This document shows positions 10,973 to 64,000 of a stretch of 64,000 nt of DNA, one piece after another. The notes beneath the pieces were generated by a model, which saw nothing but the letters and a program-made list of their open reading frames with translations, searched no databases and was not told where the DNA came from. The DNA comes from an uncultured virus (IMG/VR IMGVR_UViG_2585427945_000001). Its lineage: Duplodnaviria > Heunggongvirae > Uroviricota > Caudoviricetes. Where the stretch lies: the IMG/VR virus record IMGVR_UViG_2585427945_000001. The stretch is one strand, 5' to 3'. The stretch's first letter is position 1, and the number at the start of each line of letters is the position of its first letter. A program made the position numbers and the translations under genes.

Positions 10973-10977
10973 TCAAG

Positions 10978-11242: not shown

Positions 11243-11247
11243 TTGCG

Positions 11248-20255: not shown

Positions 20256-20282
20256 GCTCTCTCCTCTGTTGCGTTCGGGACT

Positions 20283-21265: not shown

Positions 21266-21294
21266 GGTGTGCTCCTCTGTGTTCGTGTGCATGA

Positions 21295-21326
21295 GTTATG
21301 GAGGGGTAACCCGCGAATGTTTCACG
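21295..21326 (-). promoter_or_regulatory. Phage-specific promoter motif upstream of the sigma gene
   Basis: CGTGAAACAT-N-CCCCTCCATAAC. Confidence 0.75.
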
Positions 21327-34224: not shown

Positions 34225-34279
34225 GTGTGCGAGTGCCTTTCGTAGGTGGCGTGTCGAGCGGGCGTTCCCCGCTGCCTTA

Positions 34280-34311
34280 GTTATGGAGGGGTGAGCCGCA
34301 GATGTTTCACG
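34280..34311 (-). promoter_or_regulatory. Phage-specific promoter motif upstream of the RDF gene
   Basis: Same 32-bp motif as 21295-21326. Confidence 0.75.
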
Positions 34312-40144: not shown

Positions 40145-40183
40145 GTGGCCTCCACCTCGTTGGCGTGTCTCCCTTACGCCTTA

Positions 40184-40215
40184 GTTATGGAGGGGTGCGG
40201 CGAGAATGTTTCACG
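40184..40215 (-). promoter_or_regulatory. Phage-specific promoter motif heading the early operon
   Basis: Same 32-bp motif. Confidence 0.75.
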
Positions 40216-40246: not shown

Positions 40247-40373
40247 GCCTCCTCCTCTCCGGGCCAGTCTGGACAGAAAGGCAAACTAGACCCCTATTTC
40301 TATCTCTTCCTAACGCGCGAAGGGTTAGATAGAAATAAGGGTCTAGTTCGTCAAATTGGCCAGACTGACCAGC
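40247..40373. repeat. 127-bp AT-rich imperfect palindrome, copy 2
   Basis: Identical to 12024-12150, same orientation. Confidence 0.95.
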
Positions 40374-42891: not shown

Positions 42892-42926
42892 ACCGTCCTC
42901 CTCTGTCGTGGGATCCCTACGGCATG

Positions 42927-42958
42927 GTTATGGAGGGGTGACGCCAAGATGTTTCACG
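42927..42958 (-). promoter_or_regulatory. Phage-specific promoter motif upstream of the dNMP kinase gene
   Basis: Same 32-bp motif. Confidence 0.75.
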
Positions 42959-48669: not shown

Positions 48670-48950
48670 TCGCCGTCACCGCCAGTCTCCTCGTCACCCC
48701 CACCGTCCTCACCGGGCTCCGGGTCCTCGTCGGGGTTGGGTACCGGCTCCACATCGTCGGGGTTCGGCACCGGCTCGTCGCGCAGGTCGGGGTTGCCCGC
48801 CCCGCCGGAACCGTCGCCGTCACCGAACCCGTCGTTGTCTCCGAGCATCCACCCCGGGGAGTACCCCCAGCCCGGCGCGACCGGCGGGTCCGGCTCCGGG
48901 GGCCCCGCGTCGTACACGGGCGATACATCGGGCTCAACTGGGGTACCCAT
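48666..48950 (-). CDS. Highly acidic Pro/Gly/Asp-rich small protein
   Basis: TGATG overlap with the tape measure stop and ATGA overlap with the next gene. Confidence 0.65.
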   Translation of the reverse strand: MGTPVEPDVSPVYDAGPPEPDPPVAPGWGYSPGWMLGDNDGFGDGDGSGGAGNPDLRDEPVPNPDDVEPVPNPDEDPEPGEDGGGDEETGGDGE

Positions 48951-51900
48951 CAGGTCCACCGTCCTGTCTCTAGATCTGCTGCCACGTTGTTGTCGTGCAC
49001 GACGATTTCCGTCCGCACGATGTCCTCGATCTCTCGGTCCCCGACGAAGACCCTGACGTCCGCCTGGAGCGTCGTCGGACTGGAGCCACCCGCGGACATA
49101 CCGTTCGTCGCGCGGGCGATGGCCATGGAATCGGAGTTCGAGTGGACTCGCGTCGGGGTGAGGAACTCCAGCAGTTCCGGCCCCCGCTCCCCGACCCACG
49201 CCGTCTCACCGAGGCCCGGGAAGCCGCCTGCCGCGTACCCGCCGGGACGGTTGTACGCCTTCGGAAGCGACCCGTACGCGGCCTTCGCGTAGCGCATCGA
49301 GGAGAAGATGTTGGCCAGCGGGTTGGTCGAGACCCCGTACAGCTTGGGTCCGACGCCCTGCATCTGGCCGGCGTAGGCGTCGAAGGTCGGCCGGATGACC
49401 TGCATGAGGCCGACCGACGGGTGGCCCGCCTGCCAGTTGGAGTCCCAGCGGTTGACAACGTTCGGGTCACCGCCGGACTCCTGCTGCATGCGGCGCAGCG
49501 TCAGGTCCGCGTACGACGCCGGGTTGCCCGTCATCTTGAGGGCCTGCTGCACCGTGCCACGCCAGCGGTTGACGCTCTTGCCGCCACCGCCCCCGGCGCT
49601 GCTCAGGTACGGCATGGGGTCCACCGTCTTGCCACCGACTCGCGCCTCCAGGTGGAGGTGAGGGCCGGTGACGTTGCCGGTGGCGCCAACCTGTCCGATG
49701 ACCTCGCCCTGCCGGACGCTCTTGCCGAGCGTGGCAACGAGGGAGGACATGTGGGCGTAGAGGGACGAGAGCCCACCACCGTGCGCGACCGTGGCGTGTA
49801 CACCGTACGGTCCGCTGCTCCCCGTCGATGCCACCTTGCCGTCGGCCACGGCGCGAATCGCGGTACCCACGGCCGCCGGGAAGTCGAGCCCGGTGTGATG
49901 CCCGGAGGACCACATCTTGCCCGCGACGCCGAAGCGAGTGCCGTACGGGGCGTTCACGGGCTTGATCCACTGCCCGCTGCCGCCCCCGTCCCCTCCACTG
50001 AAGACCTCGATCGCCTTGTCCTTCAAGGAGTTCAGCACCTTGCCGGGGATCTTGGCGACGGATTTCGACCACGGGTCCGTCAGATACGGCTTCAACTGGC
50101 CCGCGATGTAGTCCTTCGCCTTGCCGAAGATCGCCGTCGGGTCCATGAAGTCGCCGATGCCGGATATGAAGCTGCCGACGTCGTTCGCCTTGTCCTTGAA
50201 CCAGCCGACGATGCCACCGTTCTTGTAGGCCGGCATACCGCCCGCAATCGCCTTCTGAACGCCGCCGACGCCGCCTGAACGAGCAGCGGCATTCCACGCG
50301 TTGATCCGGTCGGCTCCGATTGCCCGGGTCCACTCGGGACGCATGACAGCCTCACCGCCGCCCACGGCGATGACTCGGTCATCACGGCCCGGGGAGTAGC
50401 CGGACATGATGCCACCCGTGTGGAAGCCCTCAAGGTTCAGCTTCTTCAGCGGGTCGGCGCCTGTGACCTTGGAGACCGCATTCCACAACGGCACGATTCC
50501 GCCGTTGTACACGTGCTCCATAATGAAACGCACAGGCTTCTTGGCGATATCCTCGACCTTGTCCCAGGCCCGTTTGATCGAGTCCTTGGCGTCGTTGAAG
50601 GAATCCGCCACGGCACTAACGGCCTTCTTGATTCCGTCGAATGCCGGCTTCAGGGCCTTGTCGTAAAGCCAAGTCGCCTTGTCCGCGATCCAGCCGAAGA
50701 CTGGAGAAAGCACCTTGTCCCAGAGCCACTTACCGGCGTCGCCCAGCGCCTCGAACTTCTTCTTGGCGTCGTCCATGGCGGGCTTGATGGCCTTGTCGTA
50801 AAGCCATCCTGCCTTGTCGCCGATCCACTGGAAGGCAGGCCGGAGTGCCTTCTCCCACAGCCACGTGGCACCGGCTCCGATGCCACGGAAGGCAGGGCCA
50901 AGTGCCTTGTCCCACAGCCACATCCCGATAGCACCGAGCGCCTTGATAGCGAGCCAGACCGGGAGGAGCAGGAGGGTGATCAGGACTGTGATCAGGATCT
51001 GAGCAGCGTCCGCGATGAAGCTGAAAGCGGGTCGGAGCGCCTTCTCCCACAGCCAGACGGCTGCGGAGCCCACCGCCTGCATCCCCGCCCATATGCCGTC
51101 GAATGCCGGCTTGAGGCCGTTGTCCCAGATCCAGATTGCCGCCGTCTTGATGGCACCTGCGACGGTGTCCACCGCGACGCGGAACCAGTCCCAGTTCTTG
51201 TAAGCGTAGACAACGGCTGCGACGAGAAGGCCGACCACGAGAATGATGGCCCGGATGATGGGGACAATTCCCGTCGCGCTCAATGCCACCGCCCAACCGC
51301 TTGTGGCGATGGTGGCGACAATCATGACCGACTCGTACAGCACCATAGCGCCTGCGAAAGCGGTCATGCCGAGCGCTATAGCCTTCTGGGCGAAATAGAG
51401 CAGCCATAGCGTCTGAATGAACTCTGGGCAGTTCGTCGCCAGCCACGATATGGCACCGAAGAGCGGGCCCAGAACGTCGAACATCGCCGTCGACAACGGG
51501 GAAAGAGCTTTCGCGGTGTCCAATGCGGCGCGCATGATGTCGCCCAGGAACTCCGCCAGACCAGGTGACGTGTCCTTGACGTACGCGAGGAACCGTTCAA
51601 AGTCCGGGGACCCCTTCAGGCTCGCACCCCACTTGGCGAATCGGCCGGTGATGCGGTCGGAATGCCTGACGATCCCTTCCATGTGCGGGAGGAACGCGTC
51701 GATCATCCCCGTAATGCCCTTGAGGACGTTGCCGAACGCCCGGCCGAACCCCTCAACGGCAGGCTGGACGTTGCCTCGCAAATCCTCCTTGAAGGACACC
51801 CAGAAAGGCTCCTTCATTTCCGCCGACGCACTGTCCTGGAGGGACTCGATCCCCTTCGCAGCACCGAGCGCCAGAGGCGTCAGGCCGGGCAATGTGTTCT

Positions 51901-54115
51901 TCGCGCTGTCCACCCCGCGGGTAAACAGGGGGAGCACGTCGGGCTGGAGAGCGAGGGACCATTCCTTGAACGCCTCGGTCAGCCCTCGCGGGCCGGCGAT
52001 GGAGTCGTACAACGCCCGCTGGGGCGGTGTGAGGTCCGCAAGCGCCTTACGGTACTCGTCAGCCTTGGAGATCGCCTGGACCGTGGTGTCGATCGAGGAG
52101 AGCCGGGCGGACTGCACCGAGCGTTCGGCGGACGCGATGGACTCCGCGGCAGACACTTGTGCGTCGGCAGCCGACTGAACGGCGTCAGCGACCCCTCGTT
52201 GGGCGTCGGCCACAGACTGAGCGGACTCCCGCGGGGAGCGGGCCGCCTTCGACTGGGCGTCGGCCACGGCCATGGCGGCTTCCCGGACCGCCCTCTGAGC
52301 GTCGGCCAGGCCCTCGGTCTGGTCCCGCACCCGCCGCTGTGCGTCAGCCAGTCGGTCGGCTGCTGTGGTGACGGCGTCGGACCCCTCCACGCCGGCCTTA
52401 CGCATCTTGCGCGCCTCGGCCTGGAGGTCCGTGTAGCTCTGCTTCTGCTTCTTCTGGCTCTGGATCGCCTGGTCGTAGGCAAGCTGAGCCTTGTCGAAGT
52501 CAGTCTGACTCATCAGACCGGCGTCGTACCGACCCGTCGCCCGCTGGAGTTCCTCGCGGGCCTCGGTCACCCGCAGCGCTGCCTCACGCTGGTTGAGGGC
52601 ACCGTCGGTGAGGCGGTCGTTCAGGTCCTTCAGCGCACGTTCGGCGTCCTTGCGGGCCCGGGTGAGGCCCTCCTCCGCCTCCAGGGCGTTCTGGTTGGCG
52701 TCGGTGAGACCCTCCTGCGCGTTCCGCACCCGACGATGGGAGTCCACGAGGGACTGCTCAGCACGCTTGATGTCCTCGGCCGACTGCTTGCGCTGGTCCG
52801 CTGACCGCTGAACGGCCTGCTGGACGGCCCGCTCTGCGTCGGCCACCTGACGAGAGGCGGATGCGATGGACCGGGCGGCGTTTCGGTGGGCGGTTGCGAG
52901 CGTCGCTTGTGCGCCAGCCATCTGAAGGGCCCGCTGCGCTGCCTGCTGGTTGACCTTCGCGCTGTTGTCGGTGGCAGTCGTCGCCTCCTTCTCAGCGGCG
53001 GTCTTCGCCTGCATCACCTCCATCACATCCATGACGGCCGGGATGGCGACGAGGGCCACTGCACCGATGCCACCTGCGGCTGCCGTCGCCATGGCGGCTA
53101 CGGCACCGAGACCCGCGGCAAGTACGGGCCCGAGGGGGATGGCGGCCAGGACCGCAGCCTGAATCGTCAGGCCCAGCAGGGCACTTGAGGCCCCGGACGT
53201 GTCAGCCAGGGCCTTGATGCGGAAGATCTTGGTGTCGTCCGCCATGGCCTGTAGAGCGGCGAGCTGGGCTGCGGCCCGCTGGGCGTCCACCCGGACGTCG
53301 ATGTCATGCCGCTGCACGCTCAGGATCGCGAGGCGCTCTTGCAGATGGTTGATCTTCGCAAGTGCCTCGGTGGCGCTGATGTCGATCCCGATGCGCTTGT
53401 CCGACAGCTCGGTGAGCTGCGCACGAATGCCCTGGATCTGCGCGCGGGCCGGCGATGTGTCGGCGTCGACGTTGATCTCGGGAAGGGATGCCTGCGCCTC
53501 CTTGACGGCCGCACGCATGCGGGCGCCCAGGGTCCCGTCAGTCTCGAACCGGATGTGGCCGGGCCGAGCAGTCAGGAGCGCGATCTCCTCCCGGATCTCC
53601 GCCAGAGCCGCGCGAGCTGTGGCGGTGTCGGCCCGTACCGCGATGTTCGGATGAGCAGCCCCCAGCCGACGGAGCTGCTCCTCCAGCCGCGTGACCTCCG
53701 CCTCCGCGGCTTCAGCGGATACGTCGATACCCACGCGCTTGTTGGAGAGCTGTTCCAGCTTGGCCCGGATGCGGGCGAGCTGGGCGTCTACACCCTCGTC
53801 GCTGAGCTTGACGTCCAGCTTCGGCATGGCCTTGAAGGCCGCTTCGAGCTTCCTCCGGATGCTGCGCGCGAAGGCGCCACCCGCGTCGTCACCCTGCTTG
53901 CCCGCTACGCGAACACCCACTCGACCACCGTTGACGATGGCGTCGGGGATGGCGATGACGATATTCTTCGATATCGCCTCCCCCATCCGCTTACCGGCGT
54001 CCTCGCCGACCCTGTCCGCGATGGGAAGAACCATCGCCTTCAGCTTGGTGTGGAACTGGGGGATCACGGGGACGACGTCGACCGCCGCACCACCGACGAT
54101 GTCAAGGTCCGGCAC
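48950..54115 (-). CDS. Tape measure protein with M23 peptidase and lytic transglycosylase domains
   Basis: 1721 aa, helical, with Trp-periodic repeats; HTGLDF...YAH...GPHLHLE; QESGG...GLMQVI. Confidence 0.95.
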   Translation of the reverse strand: MPDLDIVGGAAVDVVPVIPQFHTKLKAMVLPIADRVGEDAGKRMGEAISKNIVIAIPDAIVNGGRVGVRVAGKQGDDAGGAFARSIRRKLEAAFKAMPKLDVKLSDEGVDAQLARIRAKLEQLSNKRVGIDVSAEAAEAEVTRLEEQLRRLGAAHPNIAVRADTATARAALAEIREEIALLTARPGHIRFETDGTLGARMRAAVKEAQASLPEINVDADTSPARAQIQGIRAQLTELSDKRIGIDISATEALAKINHLQERLAILSVQRHDIDVRVDAQRAAAQLAALQAMADDTKIFRIKALADTSGASSALLGLTIQAAVLAAIPLGPVLAAGLGAVAAMATAAAGGIGAVALVAIPAVMDVMEVMQAKTAAEKEATTATDNSAKVNQQAAQRALQMAGAQATLATAHRNAARSIASASRQVADAERAVQQAVQRSADQRKQSAEDIKRAEQSLVDSHRRVRNAQEGLTDANQNALEAEEGLTRARKDAERALKDLNDRLTDGALNQREAALRVTEAREELQRATGRYDAGLMSQTDFDKAQLAYDQAIQSQKKQKQSYTDLQAEARKMRKAGVEGSDAVTTAADRLADAQRRVRDQTEGLADAQRAVREAAMAVADAQSKAARSPRESAQSVADAQRGVADAVQSAADAQVSAAESIASAERSVQSARLSSIDTTVQAISKADEYRKALADLTPPQRALYDSIAGPRGLTEAFKEWSLALQPDVLPLFTRGVDSAKNTLPGLTPLALGAAKGIESLQDSASAEMKEPFWVSFKEDLRGNVQPAVEGFGRAFGNVLKGITGMIDAFLPHMEGIVRHSDRITGRFAKWGASLKGSPDFERFLAYVKDTSPGLAEFLGDIMRAALDTAKALSPLSTAMFDVLGPLFGAISWLATNCPEFIQTLWLLYFAQKAIALGMTAFAGAMVLYESVMIVATIATSGWAVALSATGIVPIIRAIILVVGLLVAAVVYAYKNWDWFRVAVDTVAGAIKTAAIWIWDNGLKPAFDGIWAGMQAVGSAAVWLWEKALRPAFSFIADAAQILITVLITLLLLPVWLAIKALGAIGMWLWDKALGPAFRGIGAGATWLWEKALRPAFQWIGDKAGWLYDKAIKPAMDDAKKKFEALGDAGKWLWDKVLSPVFGWIADKATWLYDKALKPAFDGIKKAVSAVADSFNDAKDSIKRAWDKVEDIAKKPVRFIMEHVYNGGIVPLWNAVSKVTGADPLKKLNLEGFHTGGIMSGYSPGRDDRVIAVGGGEAVMRPEWTRAIGADRINAWNAAARSGGVGGVQKAIAGGMPAYKNGGIVGWFKDKANDVGSFISGIGDFMDPTAIFGKAKDYIAGQLKPYLTDPWSKSVAKIPGKVLNSLKDKAIEVFSGGDGGGSGQWIKPVNAPYGTRFGVAGKMWSSGHHTGLDFPAAVGTAIRAVADGKVASTGSSGPYGVHATVAHGGGLSSLYAHMSSLVATLGKSVRQGEVIGQVGATGNVTGPHLHLEARVGGKTVDPMPYLSSAGGGGGKSVNRWRGTVQQALKMTGNPASYADLTLRRMQQESGGDPNVVNRWDSNWQAGHPSVGLMQVIRPTFDAYAGQMQGVGPKLYGVSTNPLANIFSSMRYAKAAYGSLPKAYNRPGGYAAGGFPGLGETAWVGERGPELLEFLTPTRVHSNSDSMAIARATNGMSAGGSSPTTLQADVRVFVGDREIEDIVRTEIVVHDNNVAADLETGRWT

Positions 54116-54573
54116 TACGCCTCCTTTGGCTGGTTCCGCAGACGCGGGTCAAGCGCGCGGCGCTGGTCGTCCGTCATCCCCTTCCGGGGCGTGACGTTGG
54201 GGGGGATTCCGGGGCGTGACGTCGGCGTGAATTCGGGAGGCTTACCGCCGGCGGCTGCGATGGCCACGGAGCGGCTGAGTACGATCTCGTCCCGCAGCTC
54301 CGCGAGGAAGATCTCGACACGGCTCCACGGAGCCAGGTCGGGGCGGTACTCGGTACGAGCCCGCTCCATCTGCTCCGGCGTCACCGCGTTACGCATCTCC
54401 GTCTTCGTCGACGACTCCTGCGGGAGCTTCTCGATCCAGATGCGGAGGGTGCGGAGGGAGACACCCCCGCGGTACACGTCCAGGAGCCTGGCTCCGGGGT
54501 AGTACCGCGGGATGTCAGCCTCTAGCGCTTCCGCGTGCTCTTCGAGGACTTGGCACGTCCAGAGGACTTTCCC
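54115..54573 (-). CDS. Tail assembly chaperone, -1 frameshift extension (gpGT-like)
   Basis: Open -1 frame KVLWTCQVLEEHAEALEADIPRYYPG... starting from the slippery site. Confidence 0.85.
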   Translation of the reverse strand, partial: GKVLWTCQVLEEHAEALEADIPRYYPGARLLDVYRGGVSLRTLRIWIEKLPQESSTKTEMRNAVTPEQMERARTEYRPDLAPWSRVEIFLAELRDEIVLSRSVAIAAAGGKPPEFTPTSRPGIPPNVTPRKGMTDDQRRALDPRLRNQPKEA

Positions 54574-54842
54574 GGGGCCTCCCCGGTGGACTCCATGGCG
54601 GCCGACGTGAAGTCGTTGATCTCGTCGAAGGTCGGGTCCAGGTCGATGAACGACTGGACGTCGTCCTCATGCAGGACGCCAGCCGCCCACGCGTCGTAGT
54701 CGCCGTTCCGGAGAGCACGGAGGTACGAGGGCCGCCACTTGTTGCCGGGCTTGATCCGCAGCTCAGCGCCACAGAGCGTCGCCGTGCCGTACTCCTCGTT
54801 CGCCTCGTTCTCCTGGGCGTCGGCAGGGGTGATGTCAGTCAT
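54522..54842 (-). CDS. Tail assembly chaperone (gpG-like)
   Basis: Between the major tail and tape measure genes; ends ...GEAPGK. Confidence 0.88.
   Translation of the reverse strand: MTDITPADAQENEANEEYGTATLCGAELRIKPGNKWRPSYLRALRNGDYDAWAAGVLHEDDVQSFIDLDPTFDEINDFTSAAMESTGEAPGKSSGRAKSSKSTRKR
54567..54573 (-). other. -1 slippery site G GGA AAG
   Basis: Same heptamer as lambda G/GT, in the correct phase. Confidence 0.88.
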
Positions 54843-54943
54843 GGGCGCGGGTCTCCTATGTCAGGGGGTAGCTCTGCGCGGGTCTACGTGCAGGGTGAAG
54901 CGACGCCCCGGACCCGCGCGGAACGGGGCGTCGCTGGTCAGTA

Positions 54944-55002
54944 GGTGCGGCCTAGCCCAGGTCGAGGGCCACGGTTCCCGGCGACACCGTCAGGGAGAAG
55001 GG
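54944..55002 (-). other. Putative -1 frameshift cassette on the major tail gene, encoding an Ig donor strand
   Basis: C CCT TCT CCC TGA followed by a hairpin; -1 frame reads ...SLTVSPGTVALDLG*. Confidence 0.7.
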
Positions 55003-55598
55003 GTGTCACCCTCCGCCTCGAAGAAGCCCGAAACGTCTACGCCGCCGTAGTCGATCGAGCGCCTCACAGCACTGGAGTTACCGGCACCCTTGTAGAACTT
55101 GAACGTCATCTGCACGTTCATGACGTCACTCGTCTGCGGCTGTTCGTCGCCACGCTCGACGACCTTCCCGTTCGGCATGTAGAGCCGCATCCGCTTGTCA
55201 CCGTCCAGGGTGTCGAAGACGAATGCGTACCGAAGGTCAGCCGGCTTGTCGGGGAGGGAGTACGTCACGATGTCCTCGGTGGGCTCCAGGGAGGCCACGG
55301 GCACGTTGTCGTACAGGGCCCGGACAAGCGGGGACAGGCCCTCCAGGAAGGTGACCTGCGTGCTCTTGACGCTCTTCGTCATGAGCGTGCGGATGGGCTC
55401 CAGAGAACCTGCCGCATCGACGTCCTTGGACTCCTCCTCAATCTTGAAGAGGCCGCCGTCGGTCGTCACCCAACCCATGTTCATCCACGGGGTGGCCGGG
55501 TCGGCGAAGTCGACCGGCATCACGGTGTTGATCGGCGCCGCGTACACGAGATAGTCACTTGCGCCGAACGTCAGATCGGCATTGCGGGTGTCCGCCAT
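54990..55598 (-). CDS. Major tail (tube) protein
   Basis: W.NMGWVTTDG motif; upstream of the tail assembly chaperones. Confidence 0.9.
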   Translation of the reverse strand: MADTRNADLTFGASDYLVYAAPINTVMPVDFADPATPWMNMGWVTTDGGLFKIEEESKDVDAAGSLEPIRTLMTKSVKSTQVTFLEGLSPLVRALYDNVPVASLEPTEDIVTYSLPDKPADLRYAFVFDTLDGDKRMRLYMPNGKVVERGDEQPQTSDVMNVQMTFKFYKGAGNSSAVRRSIDYGGVDVSGFFEAEGDTPSP

Positions 55599-55661
55599 GA
55601 ATGCCTCCAGGGCATGCGTAGGGGCTCCGTGAGTCGACTCACGGAGCTAGGTAGTCGGGGG

Positions 55662-56033
55662 TTACGCGGCCCGGAGGCTCACGGTGTACGTGGCGCCACG
55701 TCGGTGGACTGCCTCGTTGGCCCAGGGCTGGCGCGTGGGGCCGGACATGCAGCGGACGGAGCGGATGACGGCGCCGGGAACCGGGCCTGTGAGGAAGACG
55801 AGCGCCTCGCGTACCTCGTTAGCCAGGCTTCGCGCCTCATCCGCCGTGGCTGCGAACACGTCGACGGCCACGGCGGGGGTCTGCCCGAAGCGACCGTCCG
55901 CGCCGGCGACGCGCTCCACGCGGATCATGGGGAGTGCGTCCTCCAGGTCCGCAGGGGTCTCGGCCGCGCAGAAGACGCCGAAGCGGCCCTCCAGCCACGG
56001 GGCGAGGACGGCCTCCACGTCAGCCATTGGCAT
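55662..56033 (-). CDS. Tail terminator-like protein
   Basis: LPMIRVERVAG...VAVDVFA; position before the major tail gene. Confidence 0.78.
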   Translation of the reverse strand: MPMADVEAVLAPWLEGRFGVFCAAETPADLEDALPMIRVERVAGADGRFGQTPAVAVDVFAATADEARSLANEVREALVFLTGPVPGAVIRSVRCMSGPTRQPWANEAVHRRGATYTVSLRAA

Positions 56034-56382
56034 GCTCCGCCAGGGCCGCCATGTACGCCTTGGTCAGCGGGGCGTACCGCGGGATGTTCCAGTTGCCGTA
56101 CTCCACCGCCTTGGCGTGGGGAGCGGTGTTCACCACCATGGCTCCGTGCCGCATCCGGGGCTTACCGCGGAACGGGATGTTTCTGAACACCGGCTCGACG
56201 CTGAAGCTGGCCTTGTACAGGCCGGGGTGCCTGTCCTCGGCAGGGTCGCCCACCGGGGAGAAGCCCTCCGCGGAATGCATGATCCGCACCGCTGCGTCGC
56301 GGCACGGCTTGCCCATCCACGGGCGACTGACCATGCGGCCAAGGCCGCTGTACTTACCGACGTACTTGGAGCGGTACGTCAT
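56020..56382 (-). CDS. Neck protein (HK97 gp10-like)
   Basis: SPVG....GLYKASF...APHAKAVEYG. Confidence 0.78.
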   Translation of the reverse strand: MTYRSKYVGKYSGLGRMVSRPWMGKPCRDAAVRIMHSAEGFSPVGDPAEDRHPGLYKASFSVEPVFRNIPFRGKPRMRHGAMVVNTAPHAKAVEYGNWNIPRYAPLTKAYMAALAEHANG

Positions 56383-56738
56383 CCGGTCACCTCCTTCAAG
56401 GCGGCTTCTACGCGAGCAAGGGACGTCAGGGGAAGGACGAGCGGGCGGCCGATGACCTCCCACGCCTCGGCCCCGTCCTCGCTGACGATGCGGTCCGCTG
56501 GGCGAACGTCGGTGCCTAGAGGAGCAGCGAACACTCTCCGGGTGATCACGGTCTCGCTGGCGTCGTGCTCCTCCGTCGAGGAGCCCACGGTCACGCCGTA
56601 CGGGCTCATCACGGCGCAGTGGTCGACGCGGATGCGGATCTTGGGGCCGGGCACCCAGGACCCCGTAGAGTCCCGGACCCGCTCCCCGGCCCGCTCGATG
56701 TACCACGTCTGCGACAGCACGTTGGCGATGAGGCTCAT
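56379..56738 (-). CDS. Head-tail stopper/adaptor
   Basis: DVRPADRI....WEVIGRP; position after the connector. Confidence 0.75.
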   Translation of the reverse strand: MSLIANVLSQTWYIERAGERVRDSTGSWVPGPKIRIRVDHCAVMSPYGVTVGSSTEEHDASETVITRRVFAAPLGTDVRPADRIVSEDGAEAWEVIGRPLVLPLTSLARVEAALKEVTG

Positions 56739-57112
56739 ACCGGCCGCCACACGGTGACCGGCGGGACGTAGTCCGCGGGGGCGATGTCGAGCATGCCGGC
56801 GCCTGTGGGCATCCCGACTGCACGACGAAGCCGTCGAAGCTCGTCGTCGGAGAGGACGACGCCCGTCTGTGAGTCTGCGTAGGACTGGAGCATGCCGCCC
56901 GCCTGCTCGGTCCTGAGCCCCTGGGGGTTCGTCAGGATCCGAGCGGCGACGGACAGGGCCACCGTCTTGATGCCGCGCTGCGGGGGCTCGGTGATCCGGT
57001 CCCCCACCTCACCGAGGATGGCGTCTTCAGCCAGGTCGTGGGCGAGCTGGGCGCGCTCCTCGGTGAGCGGGGTGCCCAGGAGGGCCCGCAGCTCAGCCAG
57101 GCTGAACAGCAT
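56735..57112 (-). CDS. Head-tail connector
   Basis: VALSVAARILTNPQGLRTEQAG...LSDDEL. Confidence 0.8.
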   Translation of the reverse strand: MLFSLAELRALLGTPLTEERAQLAHDLAEDAILGEVGDRITEPPQRGIKTVALSVAARILTNPQGLRTEQAGGMLQSYADSQTGVVLSDDELRRLRRAVGMPTGAGMLDIAPADYVPPVTVWRPV

Positions 57113-57335
57113 CGCCGCCCCCCGTCTTCCGGCGAGGAGAGGCCCGTTTGACGGGGGCTGCTCTCTTCGCCGGCGGCGCCACGTGTGCCGACTTACGTGG
57201 AGCCGGCGCGATCTCCCACGCCTTCGAGTTGGTGATGAGCGCCTGTGCCCACTCGGGCACATCGTCGCCGGGGCCGAACACATGGGCGCGACCCTGGGCG
57301 TCTGTCAGGTGTACGTTCGTCCGGAGTCGCGCCAT
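57093..57335 (-). CDS. Small head-associated hypothetical protein
   Basis: FGPGDDVPEWA...ITNSKAW with a basic tail. Confidence 0.75.
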   Translation of the reverse strand: MARLRTNVHLTDAQGRAHVFGPGDDVPEWAQALITNSKAWEIAPAPRKSAHVAPPAKRAAPVKRASPRRKTGGGDAVQPG

Positions 57336-57336
57336 G

Positions 57337-57600
57337 TCAGCTCACCGTCAGTTCAGCGGTGGACGGGCTCACGGCGAGCGACTCCGGGTCGTCGGTGACG
57401 GTCACGGTGCACGTTCCGCTCTTACCCTGCGCCGTCGCAGTGATCACGGCAGTACCCGCGGACACCGCTGTCACGAGGCCACCTGCCGAGACCGTGGCCA
57501 CTGCCGGGGTGGCACTGGTCCACGCGGCTGTGCTGGTCACGGTCTGCTTCGCACCGCTGGTCAGGGTAAGTTCCGCGGCGAGCTGCTGGGTCTTAGCCAT
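57337..57600 (-). CDS. Stand-alone Ig-like (Big_2) protein with the first strand moved to the C-terminus
   Basis: Starts at KTQQLAA, ends DDPESLAVSPSTAELTVS; GAGGA RBS. Confidence 0.88.
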   Translation of the reverse strand: MAKTQQLAAELTLTSGAKQTVTSTAAWTSATPAVATVSAGGLVTAVSAGTAVITATAQGKSGTCTVTVTDDPESLAVSPSTAELTVS

Positions 57601-57633
57601 TCATCCTCGTCTGTCGTCGTCGGGTTGGTCACA

Positions 57634-57693
57634 GGTGCCGCCTCAGCCCGTGGTCAGGGCTGCGGTTCCCGGCGACACCGTCAGGAAGAAGGG
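57634..57693 (-). other. Putative -1 frameshift cassette on the major capsid gene, encoding an Ig donor strand
   Basis: C CCT TCT TCC TGA followed by a hairpin; -1 frame reads ...FLTVSPGTAALTTG*. Confidence 0.7.
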
Positions 57694-58718
57694 TCGTCAA
57701 GCACCGTTGCACGGAGGGTGAGGTCCGGGGCGGCCACGACCGGGAGGGCGATGGTGGTCGCGCGAGTCCACACGGTCTGTGGGTCCTCCGACTTGTAGCC
57801 GCCGACGGCGATACCTGCGGCGTCGCCGGCCAGGCCGTACCGCGGGTCGTTCGCCTCAACCGGCACACCCCACAGGGTTTTACCGGCGGCGTCGCCCTGC
57901 TCGGGCAGGAAGAGGAGCTGGTCCTCAGGAGTGATTCGCGTGGCGACTCCGTCCACATTCACCTGCGCGTCGTAGATCTCGACCGGCGGGATTCCGAAGG
58001 AGGCCAGTACCGCGTTGACACTCGCTTCGGTGATCAGGCCGGGAGCCACGGCGGAGCCCGCGAACGCCAGGTCGCGCACCTGCTTGTTCCGCATCAGCAG
58101 GTTGTACACCGTCAGCGACATCAGCGTCGCTGCTGGACGGTGCCCGTTGGTGCGGTTGTACACCGCCACCCACGCGCGAAGGTTGTCGATCGCCTTCGCG
58201 TTCTCGGTGTCGTCCCACGCCACCGACGCGGTAACCGAGTGGGCCGCCGAACGGCCGAAGTCTACGGACGCCTGGACGCCGTTCTCGTTCAGCGTGACGG
58301 CCCCAGTGAACAGCGCCTCGCCCCGGGCAAGCTCTATGCGCGCCGCGAGCTGAGCGACGAGCTTGACAGAGTCCGACTCCATGGCGTCACGGATATCGGC
58401 GTTCTGGGTGTCGACGTTCCGCATCTTGATCTGGTCGTACTCAGAGACGGGCATCTTCCTGCTGATGGGCGGCAGTTCGCCGCTCACCCGAGACCCGCCA
58501 GGCCGGTACGCGATGTCCGACTCGGCGTCGAAGGCACGGAACCTCGCCGCCTCTACGAGGCCGCCCCCGCCTCGGCTGAAGCGAAACATCAGGTCGTTGA
58601 TGGTCTCGTTGGGGAGCCACCGGTTCAGGTTGAGCGCGTTCTCCTCGCGGAACCGGAGCGCCTCGCGGGCGTAACCGGTGAGTTCCGCAGGAGTCGCGTA
58701 CTCAGTGATGAGCTGCAT
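57681..58718 (-). CDS. Major capsid protein (lambda E-like family)
   Basis: 345 aa after the decoration and scaffold genes; GELPPISRK, ARIELARGEAL. Confidence 0.92.
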   Translation of the reverse strand: MQLITEYATPAELTGYAREALRFREENALNLNRWLPNETINDLMFRFSRGGGGLVEAARFRAFDAESDIAYRPGGSRVSGELPPISRKMPVSEYDQIKMRNVDTQNADIRDAMESDSVKLVAQLAARIELARGEALFTGAVTLNENGVQASVDFGRSAAHSVTASVAWDDTENAKAIDNLRAWVAVYNRTNGHRPAATLMSLTVYNLLMRNKQVRDLAFAGSAVAPGLITEASVNAVLASFGIPPVEIYDAQVNVDGVATRITPEDQLLFLPEQGDAAGKTLWGVPVEANDPRYGLAGDAAGIAVGGYKSEDPQTVWTRATTIALPVVAAPDLTLRATVLDDPSS

Positions 58719-58731
58719 GTATCAGGGCCTC

Positions 58732-59127
58732 TCAGACGAAGATGATGCGGCCGGCGACATCCGCCTTGCCGTTGGCGTCGACGGGGACAGGGAGCTTCGC
58801 CTCACGGATGAAGCAGTGGATGAGCATCGAGCCCACGACCGAGGTGGACGCGACCCCGCGGGCGTCGACGTCCTGAGCGGTGAAGAGGAAGCCCACGAGG
58901 GTCTGCCGACCGTCGCTCGCGGCGTCGTCGTACGGGCCGTACTTCCCGCCGGTCGTCACCTTGCCGAGCGGGATGCCGCTCTTGATGTAGCCGTCCGGGT
59001 AGTGGGTGGCCTTCGTGAACTTCGAGATGTCCAGGGTGACCGAGACAGGGGCGTCAGTGCCGTGGGCGCTGCCGAGCCAGTCACGGCGGTCCTGGGTGAA
59101 GCTCTCAACCTTGAGGTTGAGGTCCAT
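58732..59127 (-). CDS. Head decoration protein
   Basis: GYIKSGIPLG...YGPYD..ASDGRQ; between scaffold and capsid genes. Confidence 0.8.
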   Translation of the reverse strand: MDLNLKVESFTQDRRDWLGSAHGTDAPVSVTLDISKFTKATHYPDGYIKSGIPLGKVTTGGKYGPYDDAASDGRQTLVGFLFTAQDVDARGVASTSVVGSMLIHCFIREAKLPVPVDANGKADVAGRIIFV

Positions 59128-59151
59128 GGATCCTCCAGAGGGGAGTAGTGG

Positions 59152-59688
59152 TTACTTGCCGTGCTTCTGCCGGAAGCGCTCAGCTCCGGTCGCGACCGAC
59201 GAGCCTCCGCCGACGTCGGATCCGCGGTCTCCGCCAACCCGGTAGGTTCCGGTGGCGCCCGTGGGAGCGAAGTCCTTCAGCAGCGCGTCTGCGTCCGCCT
59301 CCAGCTCCTCCTTCGTGGAGCCCTGGAGACGCGCGGCCTGCGTGGTGGTGAGGCTCTTCGCGATGGCGACTTCGAGAAGCAGCGCCCTACGGACCGCTGC
59401 GTCGGCCTCCGCGCGAGCGGTAGCGGCGGCTGCCTCTGCGGTCGCCTTCTCGGCCTGGACCCGCTCGGTCTCGGTGAGGTCGGCCGCCTGGCGCCTCTTC
59501 AGCTCCTCGTCGGCCTGGCGCAGTCGCTCCAGCTCCGTGGCGTCCGGGGCGGCCTTCGAGGCTGCCTCATGCTTGCGGGCGTGGTGCTTCCAGTACGCCA
59601 CCTGGTGTTCGGGCGTCATGTCGGCCGTCGGCGTGTTGTCCGGGTAGCCGTGCTCGTTGACGGTCGGGAGGTTCTCAGGCTCAGGCAT
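59152..59688 (-). CDS. Capsid scaffolding protein
   Basis: YWKHHARKHE; coiled coil; RLQGSTKEELEADA. Confidence 0.85.
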   Translation of the reverse strand: MPEPENLPTVNEHGYPDNTPTADMTPEHQVAYWKHHARKHEAASKAAPDATELERLRQADEELKRRQAADLTETERVQAEKATAEAAAATARAEADAAVRRALLLEVAIAKSLTTTQAARLQGSTKEELEADADALLKDFAPTGATGTYRVGGDRGSDVGGGSSVATGAERFRQKHGK

Positions 59689-59729
59689 GGTGGGGTCCCC
59701 TGTCGGGAGTCGTCAGCCCGTGGCGGGCG

Positions 59730-60539
59730 TCAGGTCGGAAGACGGATGTCATCGGGGCCGGTGAAGCGCTGGCCCTTGAAGCCCAGAACGGGCCCGATCT
59801 CGCCGTGGTCGTTGGCGATAATGATCTTGCGGTAGTCCACCGCGCGGCCTCCGCGGTCGAAGGTGCCGAGCGCGTCCTCCACGGCATCGTGGATGCGTTC
59901 GAGCTTCTCTTCGTCGATGACCTGGCCGGGGTCCTCGTCGGCTGTCACCAGCTTCACGAGGCAGTCACACCCGGGATGGATCGGCGCTAGGTCGCGCTTG
60001 TGGTAGCGCTGGGTGGAGGCGATCATGCAGAGGGCGCAGTCGTACTCGCCCTGTAGTTCTCGGACGGTGTACGAGAAGCGAGGCATGTCGTCCCCCACCT
60101 CTCGCACAGTGTGGGTCCGGGCTAGCTGTAGATCCGTCTTGGCGATGGTTTCCAGCCGGTGCGTACCGCGGGCCAAGGCGGCGTCGAAAGCGACGTCCTT
60201 GTCCAACGCGGCCCAAACCTCGGCGAACGGGCGCCGGTAGACGGTCTCAGGATCGACGTCGCGTAGCGCGCGTCCGGTCACCCTGTCAAAGTCCAGGTCC
60301 GTCCGCGGTGCTCGCCCGTCGACCTCGCGGTACAACTGCTCCAGGTACGACGCCGTGAGAGCGGCGACCTGCCGCTGACCACCAAGAAGCACCGGCAGAG
60401 TAGTGCGCTCGAAGCGCCGCACGTCGGCATCACGCCACGAGCCGAGACCGGACCATGCGCGAGTGGTACGACCGAGGGTCGTCCTCCACACGCTCTGCAC
60501 TGCGGCGCCGTACTGCCGGTCAAGCCGCGTCAGGGACAT
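59730..60539 (-). CDS. Minor capsid / maturation (MuF-like) protein
   Basis: CALC..ASTQRY.....PIHPGCDC; follows the portal gene. Confidence 0.75.
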   Translation of the reverse strand: MSLTRLDRQYGAAVQSVWRTTLGRTTRAWSGLGSWRDADVRRFERTTLPVLLGGQRQVAALTASYLEQLYREVDGRAPRTDLDFDRVTGRALRDVDPETVYRRPFAEVWAALDKDVAFDAALARGTHRLETIAKTDLQLARTHTVREVGDDMPRFSYTVRELQGEYDCALCMIASTQRYHKRDLAPIHPGCDCLVKLVTADEDPGQVIDEEKLERIHDAVEDALGTFDRGGRAVDYRKIIIANDHGEIGPVLGFKGQRFTGPDDIRLPT

Positions 60540-62028
60540 CGTCCTCCTCGCGGGTGATCAGCGTTCGGGAGTCGCGCTTGCCCTGGAGGGACGCCGGCTC
60601 GGGATCCGTGTCGGGCACGGCGTTCAGGGCGTCAGCCGCGCGGTCGATCTCCATGCGGGAGATCTGCGACGGGGTGTAGCCCATGTCCTCCATGCGCTGC
60701 CGCCACGGGACGCCGGCCGAAGCCTTCTTGACGGCTGCGTCCGCGAGTTCCGAGACGGTGCGGGACTCGGGGTCACGCCAGATGGTCTCAGCGCTCCATG
60801 TCGTGGCGCGCTCGTCGTCGCCCAGGACCCGGAAGGCCATGCGCATGACGCTCTCCCATGACTCGCCGTACGCACGTTGACGGTCGCGCACCTTGCTGAT
60901 GAGTCCGGTTTCCGCAGCTTTCAGCGCGTCGCCGGAGACGTTCACAACGGCGCCGATCAGGTAATGCGGAGGTGTGCGGCTGATTGCGGCCAGATCCTGC
61001 ACGGCGGCAGTCACGGCGCGCACGTAGGGAGCTAGGTCCGTAGCCGCGAACTCCCCAAAACGGACGTCGGGGTTGTCGGTCGTCCAGAGCTTGCGGATGT
61101 CTAGCTGGAAGGGCTGGATCGCTGCCCCGGTGATCGGGTCCTCGTCGACCTCCAGGCCGGCGGCGTACCGCTGTCGGAAGGCGCCGTACTTCATGGCGGC
61201 AATGAGGTTGATCAGCGAGAGGTTGATGCGGTTCTGGATCGAGAGGACGTCCTCGTGCTCCGCGAACCCTTCCGGCCGACGGTTTCGACGGTTGATGAAG
61301 GGAACGAGGGGCACCACGCCCAGCTCGTTCACACGGTAGCCGTCGGGCAGGTTCGGAAGCGCCAGGGCGTCCCACCCACGAAGCTCCGCAGCGCGACCGG
61401 AGAAAGCCGGGTTGCCAGTCTTCGTGGTGAACTCGTGCACCCCCGTCGGCGTCCAAAGCGTCGCCCGGGTGTTCCCGGTCCAGTCATCACGCCAGAGCTT
61501 CAGTCCGGCAGCCAGCTTGCGCCGATTGCCCTGCTCATGTTCGACAGCCACCTGCGTGGGTGTCTCATGAGTCAGCACAGGCCGCCCGTCGTCGCCCTTC
61601 TCCACGAGGACGAACGCACGCCGCTGAGACATGGCGCCGTAGTGCACCAGGGCGGAATCAGCATCCATGCTGTTCTCCTGCCAGATGCGGTTGGCCTCCC
61701 GGTCTGCCACACGAGCATCGTCAGGGGAGTCCCGGTCTGCATCGTCGAACCGGAAGCCGTCAACCCCCAGCCGCTCGCCGGGGCTGTCGATGACGAGACT
61801 GAGCCAGTTGGTGCGGGCGTCCCGCATCCACTCCGAAATCTCGCGCGGATCAACGCCCGGAACGTGTGGCAGCTTCGGCTTCCCCTCTGCGGCCTTCCGG
61901 AGGGAAGTGAGCCCTGGGGTGACCTCGTTGTCGTCGTCGATGCTGTCCTTGCGCTCGTCCAGCATCCTCTTGCCTAGCCGCTGGAGCCACCATCCCGGGG
62001 ATTCCGGAACCTGTGCGTCAACCGGCAT
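60520..62028 (-). CDS. Portal protein (SPP1 gp6-like)
   Basis: ANRIWQEN, LGVVPLVPF.N, SGDALKAAE; follows terL. Confidence 0.93.
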   Translation of the reverse strand: MPVDAQVPESPGWWLQRLGKRMLDERKDSIDDDNEVTPGLTSLRKAAEGKPKLPHVPGVDPREISEWMRDARTNWLSLVIDSPGERLGVDGFRFDDADRDSPDDARVADREANRIWQENSMDADSALVHYGAMSQRRAFVLVEKGDDGRPVLTHETPTQVAVEHEQGNRRKLAAGLKLWRDDWTGNTRATLWTPTGVHEFTTKTGNPAFSGRAAELRGWDALALPNLPDGYRVNELGVVPLVPFINRRNRRPEGFAEHEDVLSIQNRINLSLINLIAAMKYGAFRQRYAAGLEVDEDPITGAAIQPFQLDIRKLWTTDNPDVRFGEFAATDLAPYVRAVTAAVQDLAAISRTPPHYLIGAVVNVSGDALKAAETGLISKVRDRQRAYGESWESVMRMAFRVLGDDERATTWSAETIWRDPESRTVSELADAAVKKASAGVPWRQRMEDMGYTPSQISRMEIDRAADALNAVPDTDPEPASLQGKRDSRTLITREEDDVPDAA

Positions 62029-62040
62029 GCGTCCTCCTCC

Positions 62041-63753
62041 CTAGAATGCGACGAGGCGGCCAGTCCGCTTCTTTCGCTTAGTGATCCCTGCGGCAACGGC
62101 GTCAGCGCGGCACTCGTAGGCGAGCGTCGCGGACATGGCGGCGTCGATCTTCTTCGGCGACTTCGGGTGTTCCTTGCCGATGCCGATGTGGTTGCGTCCC
62201 AGCGGCCGACGCTTGGCGTTCAGCACGTGGCGGGTGAGTGTGGTGCCTTTGCGGGCGTAGTCGGCGTCGGTGTCACCGGCCTTGTCGGTGCCGCACCACG
62301 AAAGGCCCTTGTCGTCAACGGCCTCCACGAAGCGGTTGAGGGCCTGCTCCATGGCCGTCGGACGGTTGGTCCACCACTCCAGCGGGCGGGCCTGTGTAGC
62401 GCGTACCGACAGGTTCTCGCCGTAGTCCCTGGTCCAGGCGTCCGCGTAGTCCTGCCAGTGCGGCGGGTCGCAGTAGAAGCCGCACACGTCGAAGCGCTCG
62501 AAGGCTCGGGCGACGGCAGCGTCAACCGACTCCCGGTCGACCTGCCACCCGTCGCCCTCTGGACCCTCGGGCTTCTCCCAGACCCCGAGGAGCTGGAGGT
62601 GGCCGTCAGATACGCGGCAGGCTGTAAGGGCCGTGGCGTCGTCGCGGATCGATCCGTCGAAGCCGAGTGTGACCAACTCGCCGGGGGCGATCTCCTCGTC
62701 CCGCCGGCAGAGAAGCCAGGCGTCCGGGTCCATCCACGCATCGGAGGACGACGTCCGGGAGTTGAGGAAGTAGCGCTTGCCGTCCGCGGAGTCGGTGCGG
62801 AGGTCGTAGAAGTCGTCGACGAGGGTGTCTTCGTCGATCCACTCCATGGCGTCGCCGTACGCGTCCCGGAGAGCGGCACGGAGCTGGACCTCATCCTTCA
62901 AGTCCGCGCAAACGCCGTAGCGGTGGTCGTACATGAGTCGCGACCGGCCGCGCTTCTTGCGGCCCTCGCGGATCGCTTCGGCCTCCTCGTACGTCCGCTC
63001 AGCGACACTGTCCTGGCCCGGGGCGAACATGGTCGTGGTTTCGAGATACCACGTGCCGGCGCCCTTCTTCCTCTTGCGGAGGTTTCGGGTCACGGTCGCG
63101 TACATGCGACGCAGCTCAGGCGTGTTGTACAGGTGCGTCTCGTCGAAGCAGACCCACGTCTCCTTACCGCCGTCCTTCGAGGAGGATGAAGCGGTTGACG
63201 GGGTGATCTCCCCACCCTGCGGAAGGTTGATCTTCGTCAGGCCGGGATCGATGCCTGGGATGGCGGAGAGGGGTGACGACTCGTCGGTCAGGTTGAAGTA
63301 GATCGTGTCGTAGACGTTGCCGGTCTGGCCTTCCTCCGTGGCCATGATCCGGAGGTACGGCACCTTGACCGGGCGGCCCATCGGCTCACCGGGCTCGTAG
63401 ACGTACTCGAAGCCGAAGCCCCAGGGGTCTCGGTAGACCTCTCCGCCCTCCGCCCAGCCGGCGAACCGGGCGGGGCCGAGCGCTTCGAAGAGTCCGATGC
63501 GGGCGCCTAGGCCGGACTTGTCGCAGCCCTTGGGGCGGGAGAAGAAGGCCGAGTCGTAGAGGAGCTTGCCCTCGTCGTCATCGACCGCGTAACAGTCCAC
63601 CACGAAGCCGCTGTACTCGTCGCCGTGGCGGACGGGCTCACCCTGGACGTCACCAGGGCCGTGGACGACCATGAACTCCATCCACGCCAGCGCCATCCAC
63701 CCGATCGAGCGGGACCGATCATGACCCGGGGCGCGTACCGTGACGTGCGGCAT
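62041..63753 (-). CDS. terL: Terminase large subunit, copy 2
   Basis: Identical to 5846-7558. Confidence 0.93.
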   Translation of the reverse strand: MPHVTVRAPGHDRSRSIGWMALAWMEFMVVHGPGDVQGEPVRHGDEYSGFVVDCYAVDDDEGKLLYDSAFFSRPKGCDKSGLGARIGLFEALGPARFAGWAEGGEVYRDPWGFGFEYVYEPGEPMGRPVKVPYLRIMATEEGQTGNVYDTIYFNLTDESSPLSAIPGIDPGLTKINLPQGGEITPSTASSSSKDGGKETWVCFDETHLYNTPELRRMYATVTRNLRKRKKGAGTWYLETTTMFAPGQDSVAERTYEEAEAIREGRKKRGRSRLMYDHRYGVCADLKDEVQLRAALRDAYGDAMEWIDEDTLVDDFYDLRTDSADGKRYFLNSRTSSSDAWMDPDAWLLCRRDEEIAPGELVTLGFDGSIRDDATALTACRVSDGHLQLLGVWEKPEGPEGDGWQVDRESVDAAVARAFERFDVCGFYCDPPHWQDYADAWTRDYGENLSVRATQARPLEWWTNRPTAMEQALNRFVEAVDDKGLSWCGTDKAGDTDADYARKGTTLTRHVLNAKRRPLGRNHIGIGKEHPKSPKKIDAAMSATLAYECRADAVAAGITKRKKRTGRLVAF

Positions 63754-63772
63754 CGGCGCCCCCTCTCTGTAG

Positions 63773-64000
63773 TTAGCCGGTCAGCCTCGCTCGCCGTGAA
63801 GTGATGTCGGAAACGTTGCTGCCAGGGCTCTGTGCGGGCCTCTGCGGGGCGCTCGTGGGGTCGTCGACCTTGAGCTTGAGGCGGGCCCTGTCCTCCGGCG
63901 TGGCGCCGAACTTGGCGACTCTGAGGCGTACCTCAGCGGCCAGGGTCCAATGCCCTTTCTGCCAGTACGCGTTGTGCAGCAATGCCGTATCCAAGAGGCT
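63773..64000 (-). CDS. terS: Terminase small subunit, copy 2 (truncated by the window edge)
   Basis: Matches the 3' part of 7578-8045. Confidence 0.85.
   Translation of the reverse strand, partial: SLLDTALLHNAYWQKGHWTLAAEVRLRVAKFGATPEDRARLKLKVDDPTSAPQRPAQSPGSNVSDITSRRARLTG

Follow-up and report, generated by a model that had tools for sequence, protein, structure and literature searches.

In a 64,000-nucleotide window from the uncultured virus record IMGVR_UViG_2585427945_000001 (the window here means this whole stretch of DNA), we found that the major tail (tube) gene ends in a short cassette homologous to one at the end of the major capsid gene, and we propose that it is a programmed -1 ribosomal frameshift cassette. 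In the proposed mechanism, some ribosomes would slip back one base near the heptamer CCCTTCT, with the peptidyl-tRNA-Pro shifting from the minor codon CCU to CCC, and the slip would be aided by the rare codon UCU, by a stop codon three bases on and by a stem-loop 6-7 bases after the heptamer. The slipped ribosomes would append about 15 residues (FSLTVSPGTVALDLG), here called the tag, in place of the normal C-terminal Ser-Pro. The appended peptide would be the A/A' strand of an immunoglobulin-like (Ig) domain of the Big_2 family that is split at the A-B loop, and strands B-G would be made from their own start codon by an 87-amino-acid (aa) gene downstream of the capsid gene. With the tag as its donor strand, the free Ig protein would then complete its fold, and tagged tube and capsid subunits would come to carry Ig domains. 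Homology between the cassettes, their conservation, an RNA stem and linkage between the tag and the Ig gene were all observed. We consider it probable that the cassette is a functional recoding signal, and we lean slightly towards the full chain, in which the -1 shift yields a tube isoform with the tag and the free Ig protein docks on it by strand complementation.

Homologous cassettes on tube and capsid genes

The 3' ends of both genes run from a Pro/Ser-rich stretch into CCCTTCT, one more codon, TGA and an identical run, and they have in common an exact 22-mer, 2691 bases apart. When the 22-mer was searched with up to three mismatches, three matches were found in the window against 0.02 expected from shuffled sequences; two of these are the same capsid site, since the window is a wrapped genome of ~56.19 kb in which 1-7805 repeats 56185-64000, and the capsid cassette sequence is seen again at ~1452-1504. 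A preliminary description of this DNA had stated that the tube gene ends ACC CCT TCT CCC TGA followed by a string nearly matching the capsid 3' end, that its -1 frame closes at 54952-54954, and that the differences between the two copies preserve both the frame and the stop position. The sequence agreed on every point: the -1 stop is a TAG, and the two cassettes are 85% identical from CCC to the extension stop with no net indel. Their common layout consists of CCCTTCT, a stop three bases on, a stem-loop and a 16-codon -1 open reading frame (ORF), and on the tube gene the -1 frame reads H and then PFSLTVSPGTVALDLG. The likeness continues beyond the extension stop into the 3' arm of the RNA stem (54944-54952). 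Both codons at the slip site are minor ones in this genome, CCT accounting for 20 of 145 Pro codons and TCT for 11 of 182 Ser codons. A search for the A-strand motif in all six frames of the window gave three real sites, namely the two extensions, on capsid and tube, and the C-terminal tail of the Ig protein. All three end 3 residues ahead of a stop; one further match at 40094 was unrelated.

The tube genes of relatives end ~50 bases earlier, directly ahead of the 3' flank that is retained in the window, so the tube cassette of the window is an insertion. Contigs 90-95% alike from four public runs of two studies carry the tube cassette, and three of them span 54700-55300; one relative's contig also has the capsid copy, ~2.4 kb upstream. 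Among the differences listed for these contigs there was no indel between 54898 and 55300; 23 further differences exist beyond those listed. The extension substitutions in X2-X4 leave the heptamer, the stop and the stems intact.

The cassette was found in 15 copies in nine records, and the earlier view of it as portable was borne out: its host genes encode major head proteins of four PHROG families (phrog_29, 10, 267 and 2263) and major tail proteins of phrog_476/117. The window, L097, L107, P318 and G002 each carry it on both capsid and tube genes, L018/L096 on the capsid gene; G001 has a tube copy alone, and G003 and G004 have capsid copies. A short blastn match led to P318, an isolated Thermobifida phage, and G001, G002 (which is P318-like), G003, G004, L097 and L107 came from a looser pattern scan together with a scan using an alignment of small Ig proteins. 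The heptamer CCCTTCT is identical in 13 of the 15 copies, and the other two, the capsid copies of P318 and G002, have the canonical heptamer C CCA AAT in the same place. The extension is 15-18 codons long in 13 copies and 35 codons long in G003 and G004. In P318, the major tail gene closes with the same heptamer and one codon, then TAA and an identical run of 10 bases, its -1 ORF being PFSLTVSPATVELSF, and the capsid gene ends with C CCA AAT and the -1 ORF PKFTLTVTPDSVSLELGS, followed by an 88-aa ORF22 that is annotated as an Ig-like domain-containing protein. The capsids of the window and P318 are unrelated (BLASTP E = 9) and their tubes barely related (E = 0.033), whereas the P318 Ig protein is the only match of the window Ig protein in a tblastn search of GenBank phages (50% identity, residues 1-82). 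That phages with unrelated capsids have a related Ig protein and cassette indicates that the module is portable.

Seventeen relatives were examined, comprising Samy and 16 IMG/VR loci; the latter include three pairs with identical sequence in the cassette region. Only L018 (equal to L002, L088 and L096) has a capsid cassette together with an Ig gene; the other 16 have neither cassette nor Ig gene. An exact 21-mer scan of viral contigs returned the L018 genome only. Degenerate scans of genome and metagenome contigs, which demanded TGA and CCNGG, gave L080 (Sphingomonas, in frame) and L081, both rejected as chance matches, and L083 from the looser viral scan was likewise a chance match. Two copies showed features of their own. 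The tube copy of L107 (5667-5762) has no zero-frame stop, and its zero frame runs 21 codons further with the -1 ORF PFSQVVSPSSVALDHP intact. In L099 (79-3294; G003), the cassette-bearing frame is open for 1042 codons and matches the portal, protease and major head families in turn, being either a fused gene or adjacent genes in one stop-free frame.

A comparison of the seven codons after the conserved core in nine copies showed a mean nucleotide identity of 44%. The extension frame scored +1.35 per residue in BLOSUM62 at 34% identity, against -0.78 for the +1 frame and -0.45 for the zero frame at 14-15% identity. The capsid and tube copies of P318, 53% identical in DNA, encode the same peptide pattern. 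A conserved -1 ORF overlapping the gene end, as is characteristic of programmed -1 frameshift sites, is therefore present. For the Leu of the -1 frame, 14 of 15 copies use either CTG or the rare codon CTA and none uses CTC or CTT, so that a zero-frame stop is always created and may itself be selected; the codon choice suggests selection on this stop. In the P site, re-pairing from CCU to CCC is favourable.

All 13 copies analysed for RNA structure have a stem of 7-10 base pairs (bp) that starts 0-1 base after the zero-frame stop, contains an inner hairpin and has its 3' arm at the extension stop or slightly beyond it. The stem begins 6-7 bases after the heptamer (9 in the P318 capsid copy), and a gap of 6-7 bases is the classical spacing of -1 frameshift stimulators. 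Shuffled sequences matched the observed stem length in 4-137 of 1000 cases per copy. Across 14 copies, pairs changed on both sides at stem positions 1, 5, 6, 7 and 8 of 10, and four pair types occur at position 6; the result is a candidate stimulatory stem with covariation, read with 3' arms that were chosen as the best complement. In the inner hairpin, the tube copy differs from the capsid copy by C-G to U-A and A-U to G-U, and the pairing is kept.

The tag and the free Ig protein

The Ig ORF of the window matches Big_2 (PF02368) with 35.9 bits (Pfam gathering cut-off 22.8), and its match begins only at profile position 18; the sole Big_2 match likewise begins at position 17-18 in five of five further cassette records. 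We aligned the tag, the spacer and the Ig frame with nine intact in-frame Big_2 domains of tail-tube-like proteins, 52-60% identical, and found that the tag aligns to the first strand (A) with the invariant columns V, P, T and A, and that the spacer is inserted, over 17 columns, after strand A and ahead of the conserved T-x-Q-L of strand B. Because the tag lies on strand A and the spacer ahead of strand B, the Big_2 domain appears to be split at the A-B loop. By homology, the tag is very probably the Big_2 strand that the Ig ORF lacks. At the sequence level, the system consists of an acceptor fold without one strand and a strand on another polypeptide; with its 16 codons, the tag does not encode a complete Ig-like domain. 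When the read-through chain was searched with Pfam, the Big_2 match stayed short of the extension, and the tag-spacer-Ig chain (TGA read as W) folded with ten relatives gave a predicted local distance difference test (pLDDT) score of 47.3. The preliminary description had argued that the capsid extension is no relic, and this is upheld by its recurrence, by the conservation of the -1 peptide where the DNA differs and by the alignment to Big_2 strand A. In the window, two TGA codons and 13 codons separate the capsid tag from the Ig ORF, which is in the same frame (57601-57645, minus strand).

The Ig C-terminus consists of a short linker and a second A-like strand in six of the seven distinct records with a complete Ig ORF; G001 is without it, and the G004 ORF is cut off by the contig end. 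In the window, this tail (residues 70-87, with a 4-residue linker) is SLAVSPSTAELTVS. Tags and Ig tail are alike within a genome, with LDHP in all three L107 copies and LDSPG in both G003 copies. An exhaustive profile search led to giant tandem Big_2 proteins, in which 138 of the 150 best stretches listed reach profile position 80 or beyond (of 88). As these matches reach position 80 or further, the Ig tail aligns as the first strand of the next repeat, and judged by this alignment the free Ig protein is a register-shifted Big_2 unit. A bolder extension, which we hold to be rather unlikely, is a nicked tandem-Ig array, in which each unit would consist of strands B-G plus the A strand of the next repeat, and the tags would prime head-to-tail non-covalent polymerisation of such units by serial donor-strand complementation. 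If this were true, one 87-codon gene would supply Ig whiskers of variable length on head and tail, a natural tag-and-catcher system with its dosage set by ribosomal frameshifting.

A Foldseek search of the Protein Data Bank (PDB) with the Ig model gave Big_2 domains of LigA, LigB and intimin (best template-modelling score 0.72 over 71 columns), as well as 8zdh, 8zdj and 8zdk of mycobacteriophage Douge, none of the matches reaching E <= 0.001. A word-indexed protein search with the Ig protein found five relatives only, and a protein atlas held an 86-aa Big_2 cluster of 63 members, mostly from Actinomycetota; no GenBank phage matched the Ig region in blastn. In P318, ORF22 was detected in gel-filtered virions by liquid chromatography-tandem mass spectrometry with 18% coverage, and the capsid and tube proteins reached 47% and 31% (PMC6893835). 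The virion proteomics of that paper queried annotated ORFs only, and the word frameshift does not occur in it.

Tube cassettes were found only in Ig-bearing genomes (six of six: the window, P318, G002, G001, L097 and L107), and none of the 16 Ig-less relatives has one. As described earlier, no Ig gene follows the tube gene of the window, the next gene encoding a tail assembly chaperone. In L097, the Ig gene follows the tube gene, and the capsid gene is tagged with no Ig gene after it, which is the mirror of the window. In G001, the Ig gene stands after an untagged capsid gene, and the sole tag is on the tube gene, 2.2 kb away. Unless tag and Ig protein act in trans, these two arrangements are difficult to account for. 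The earlier proposal that one Ig gene serves head and tail in trans gained from them, from the absence of tube cassettes in Ig-less relatives and from the Ig protein in P318 virions; it had overlooked the A-like strand that the Ig protein itself carries, which complicates it in its simple form.

Weighing the proposed mechanism and its alternatives

Several observations weigh against the proposed frameshift and docking. At the slip site, C CCT TCT does not follow the form X XXY YYZ, which is seen only in the capsid copies of P318 and G002, and re-pairing of the A-site tRNA at CCCTTCT would put G.U at the middle position; conservation of the heptamer could merely reflect preferred Pro-Phe codons of the -1 frame. 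Most copies end with CCC or UCC followed by the stop, a context for +1 shifts known in Listeria phages, and CCC_UGA is a +1 site in their tail genes (PMC5009743, from the part of the paper available); the cassette may thus also give a +1 product. As for the RNA, the stem evidence comes from a search that picks best-complement 3' arms and so favours pairs, and the homologous 3' arm of the tube copy has one C.C mismatch in 9 pairs. Single-sequence folds of the three closest copies, in a GC-rich context, matched those of shuffled sequences (z = 0.11, -0.47 and -1.04), and RNAalifold on a MAFFT alignment of 11 copies returned two trivial pairs only, with the 3' arms misaligned. Both listed substitutions within the extension (V to M and D to Y; X2-X4) are non-synonymous. 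The window assembly contains homopolymer indel errors, and the tube cassette is present in it once only. On the protein side, the Ig protein folded alone (seven sequences) reached a pLDDT of 84.6 and its own tail formed two strands at a confidence of ~71; according to this model, the free Ig protein may need no foreign strand, and its own A-like strand complicates a plain tag-and-catcher picture. The slip, its exact site, its efficiency and the docking are what we infer.

The confident fold of the Ig protein alone also speaks for an alternative in which the frameshift is real and the extension acts by itself, for instance in regulating tube or capsid assembly or as a subunit contact, with the Ig protein binding otherwise or completing itself. 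Short frameshift extensions without an Ig fold are indeed known, such as T7 gene 10B (PMC5009743, available part). We consider this alternative unlikely: the tag is homologous to exactly the strand missing from the Ig ORF, tube cassettes are confined to Ig-bearing genomes, and G001 has an Ig protein without the tail, no capsid tag and a tag on the tube alone. It is also possible to regard the tube copy of the window as an inert and fairly recent duplicate of the capsid cassette, made by recombination between similar 3' flanks and not usefully expressed. The nearest sequences to the tube copy are those on capsid genes of its own lineage (85-87%), a GGGC-stop-G.C..CACCT stretch recurs in the flanks of both sites, the tube cassette occurs in none of the 17 IMG/VR and GenBank relatives, and its homologous 3' arm contains the mismatch. 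Set against this, the ORF, the stop position and the inner hairpin, with its compensatory change from C-G to U-A, survive 15% divergence; the cassette has no listed indels in the 90-95% relatives from two studies; and four other records have capsid and tube copies, the two of P318 being only 53% identical. An inert duplicate therefore seems quite improbable to us.

We give little credence to the view that the cassette is an RNA element only, serving mRNA stability, processing or attenuation after two very highly expressed genes, with the -1 ORF as a by-product. The conserved two-tier stem-loop directly after the stop and the nearly invariant synonymous positions of the 5' arm would suit such an element, but the peptide is conserved despite unrelated inner hairpin sequences, the position of the extension stop is constant, the tag has its homologue in Big_2 strand A, and the cassette co-occurs with an Ig ORF that is without this strand. 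A single chain of capsid extension, spacer and Ig protein, produced by frameshift plus stop read-through and leaving the tube cassette as a truncated remnant, is very improbable. The tag and the Ig ORF do lie in one frame with 1-3 stops between them in six of eight cases (the window, L096, L097, L107, G002 and G003). They are in different frames in P318 and G004, unlike in the close relatives G002 and G003; each Ig ORF has its own Shine-Dalgarno sequence and start codon, and none of the eight phage tRNAs is a suppressor. We take the common frame to be a vestige of descent from an ordinary frameshift-fused Ig domain and not a sign of read-through. Between the two wrapped copies of the window there are 15 single-base indels over ~7.8 kb, every one in a homopolymer run, with no substitutions and with identical capsid cassette sequences. 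The assembly is thus prone to error at just the places that decide reading frames, and a run of four C precedes the heptamer. It could be supposed from this that the frame break is an assembly error and that the tube protein continues in frame. This is hardly credible: independent assemblies, one of them of a published isolate, show the same -1 layout in 14 other copies, and relatives' contigs have no listed indel across the site.

Genome context and comparison with known systems

The window phage is a Streptomyces-type siphophage, and its closest named relative is Streptomyces phage Samy (80.7% identity across 37% of a 4.4-kb query). The features around the two cassettes are listed in Table 1. 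In the structural gene order on the minus strand, connector genes lie between the Ig ORF and the tube gene, and two chaperones and the tape measure gene (48950-54115) lie beyond the latter. A promoter and terminator consensus scan of 54400-58000 gave no match, including at the hairpin after the tube gene, and no RNA runs were among the public runs listed as carrying the phage.

Table 1. Features of the tube and capsid cassettes and of the genes around them (window positions)
Feature	Position	Strand	Remarks
Head decoration protein	58732-59127	minus	
Major capsid gene	57681-58718	minus	345 aa; Phage_cap_E, phrog_29
Capsid cassette copy	57643..57693	minus	heptamer 57687-57693; -1 ORF PFFLTVSPGTAALTTG + TGA
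Free Ig gene	57337..57600	minus	87 aa; Big_2 profile positions 18-78 of 79, strand A absent
Major tail (tube) gene	54990..55598	minus	202 aa; Pfam Phage_TTP_17 3e-13; phrog_476 9e-28
Heptamer CCCTTCT, proposed -1 slip site	54996..55002	minus	zero frame C CCT TCT
Tube zero-frame stop	54990-54992	minus	TGA
Tube -1 extension ORF	54952..55002	minus	PFSLTVSPGTVALDLG + stop TAG (54952-54954)
Outer stem, 5' arm	54980..54988	minus	1 base after stop
Inner hairpin	54953..54971	minus	6 bp, 7-base loop
Outer stem, 3' arm homologous to that of the capsid copy	54944..54952	minus	register read by eye
Alternative 3' arm	54927..54934	minus	8 bp, from energy fold; overlaps next hairpin
GC-rich hairpin after tube gene	54902..54932	minus	terminator-like without T run; kept in cassette-less relatives
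Tail assembly chaperone	54522-54842		next gene after tube

Elsewhere in the window we noted several repeats. An 11-copy family of ~25 bases around a 20-base near-palindrome with central GTCGAC occurs at 20278-20302 and 10 other sites, with copies at 17702, 19094, 21397, 34375, 37477, 41914 and 57175 among them, and may represent an operator, a promoter-associated site or a terminator site. A motif of 39-72 bases in four copies (21288-21326, 34273-34311, 40177-40215 and 42920-42958) contains GGAGGGG and, a few bases on, ATG TTT CAC GG, and looks like a repeated leader or ribosome-binding region. An exact direct repeat of 127 bases occurs at 12024-12150 and 40247-40373, 28 kb apart, and the tape measure gene has tandem-like internal repeats of 48-106 bases at a spacing of 57 or 135 bases (50624-51140). 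Eight tRNA genes are clustered at 10567-11726 on the minus strand (Pro-UGG, Ser-CGA, Gln, Asn, two Glu, Arg and His).

If the proposed mechanism is true, it would be a new principle of virion decoration, in which frameshifting supplies nothing but a docking strand, and head and tail draw on one free Ig gene. Engineered split-domain tags would then have a counterpart in nature. The cassette is compact and portable, ~70 bases long and grafted onto at least four capsid families, and CCCUUCU with its stop and stem is possibly a new -1 shift site in high-GC actinophages. For annotation, 16-codon extensions and 'hypothetical' 87-aa Ig genes are currently unlinked, as in the P318 record. Ig modules displayed on head and tail through frameshifting are already known; the split domain, the one-strand tag, the single trans-acting Ig gene and the cassette itself were not found described in the literature searched. 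That literature, which lay mostly outside subscription journals, gave no description of a phage on which a divided Ig domain is completed in trans, nor of the CCCTTCT heptamer.

In chaperone-usher pili, an Ig-like fold without an edge strand is completed by a strand of another polypeptide, and subunits that both accept and donate strands can form chains. The pilins are without the C-terminal G strand and receive an N-terminal donor, whereas our system lacks the A strand at the N-terminus and has its donors at C-termini; it contains neither chaperone nor usher, and complementation is proposed from sequence.

The cassette stands at the 3' end of capsid and major tail genes, as in the class of frameshift-appended Ig domains described by Fraser et al. 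(2006; cited in PMC5009743), in which Ig modules likewise move between unrelated structural genes. In the available part of PMC5009743, Atkins et al. (2016) report that -1 or +1 frameshifting appends Ig-like domains to capsid or major tail proteins (T3, A2, A118, A500 and PSA) and that such domains spread by non-homologous recombination. SPP1 makes a frameshifted tube isoform with an FN3 domain at a ratio of 3:1 (PMC8718954, available part). Our system resembles Lactobacillus phage A2, Listeria phages PSA, A118 and A500, T3 gene 10 and SPP1 gp17.1*, as far as the sources available describe them, in that recoding at the 3' end would give a minority isoform displaying an Ig-fold module. It differs from them in that theirs is a whole Ig-like or FN3 domain in cis, whereas here the addition is ~15 residues forming one strand, and the other strands come from a gene of their own, of which each genome has one; CCCTTCT is also outside the described shift sites.

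Mycobacteriophage Douge has in-frame Ig-like domains on its capsid protein gp8 and tube protein gp13, which bind mycobacterial surface glycans (PMC13033339, available part). Like Douge, the window phage is an actinophage, and it is proposed to display related Ig-like domains on head and tail; in Douge they are fused in frame, and the word frameshift does not occur in PMC13033339. By analogy, this suggests host surface glycan binding as the role of the Ig protein, and because the Douge domains bind such glycans, the cassette and Ig protein together may tune adsorption. A Big_2 domain outside the siphophage tail tube is also known from lambda gpV and T5 pb6 (PMC8718954, available part); theirs are complete, in-frame C-terminal domains, unlike the divided one proposed here.

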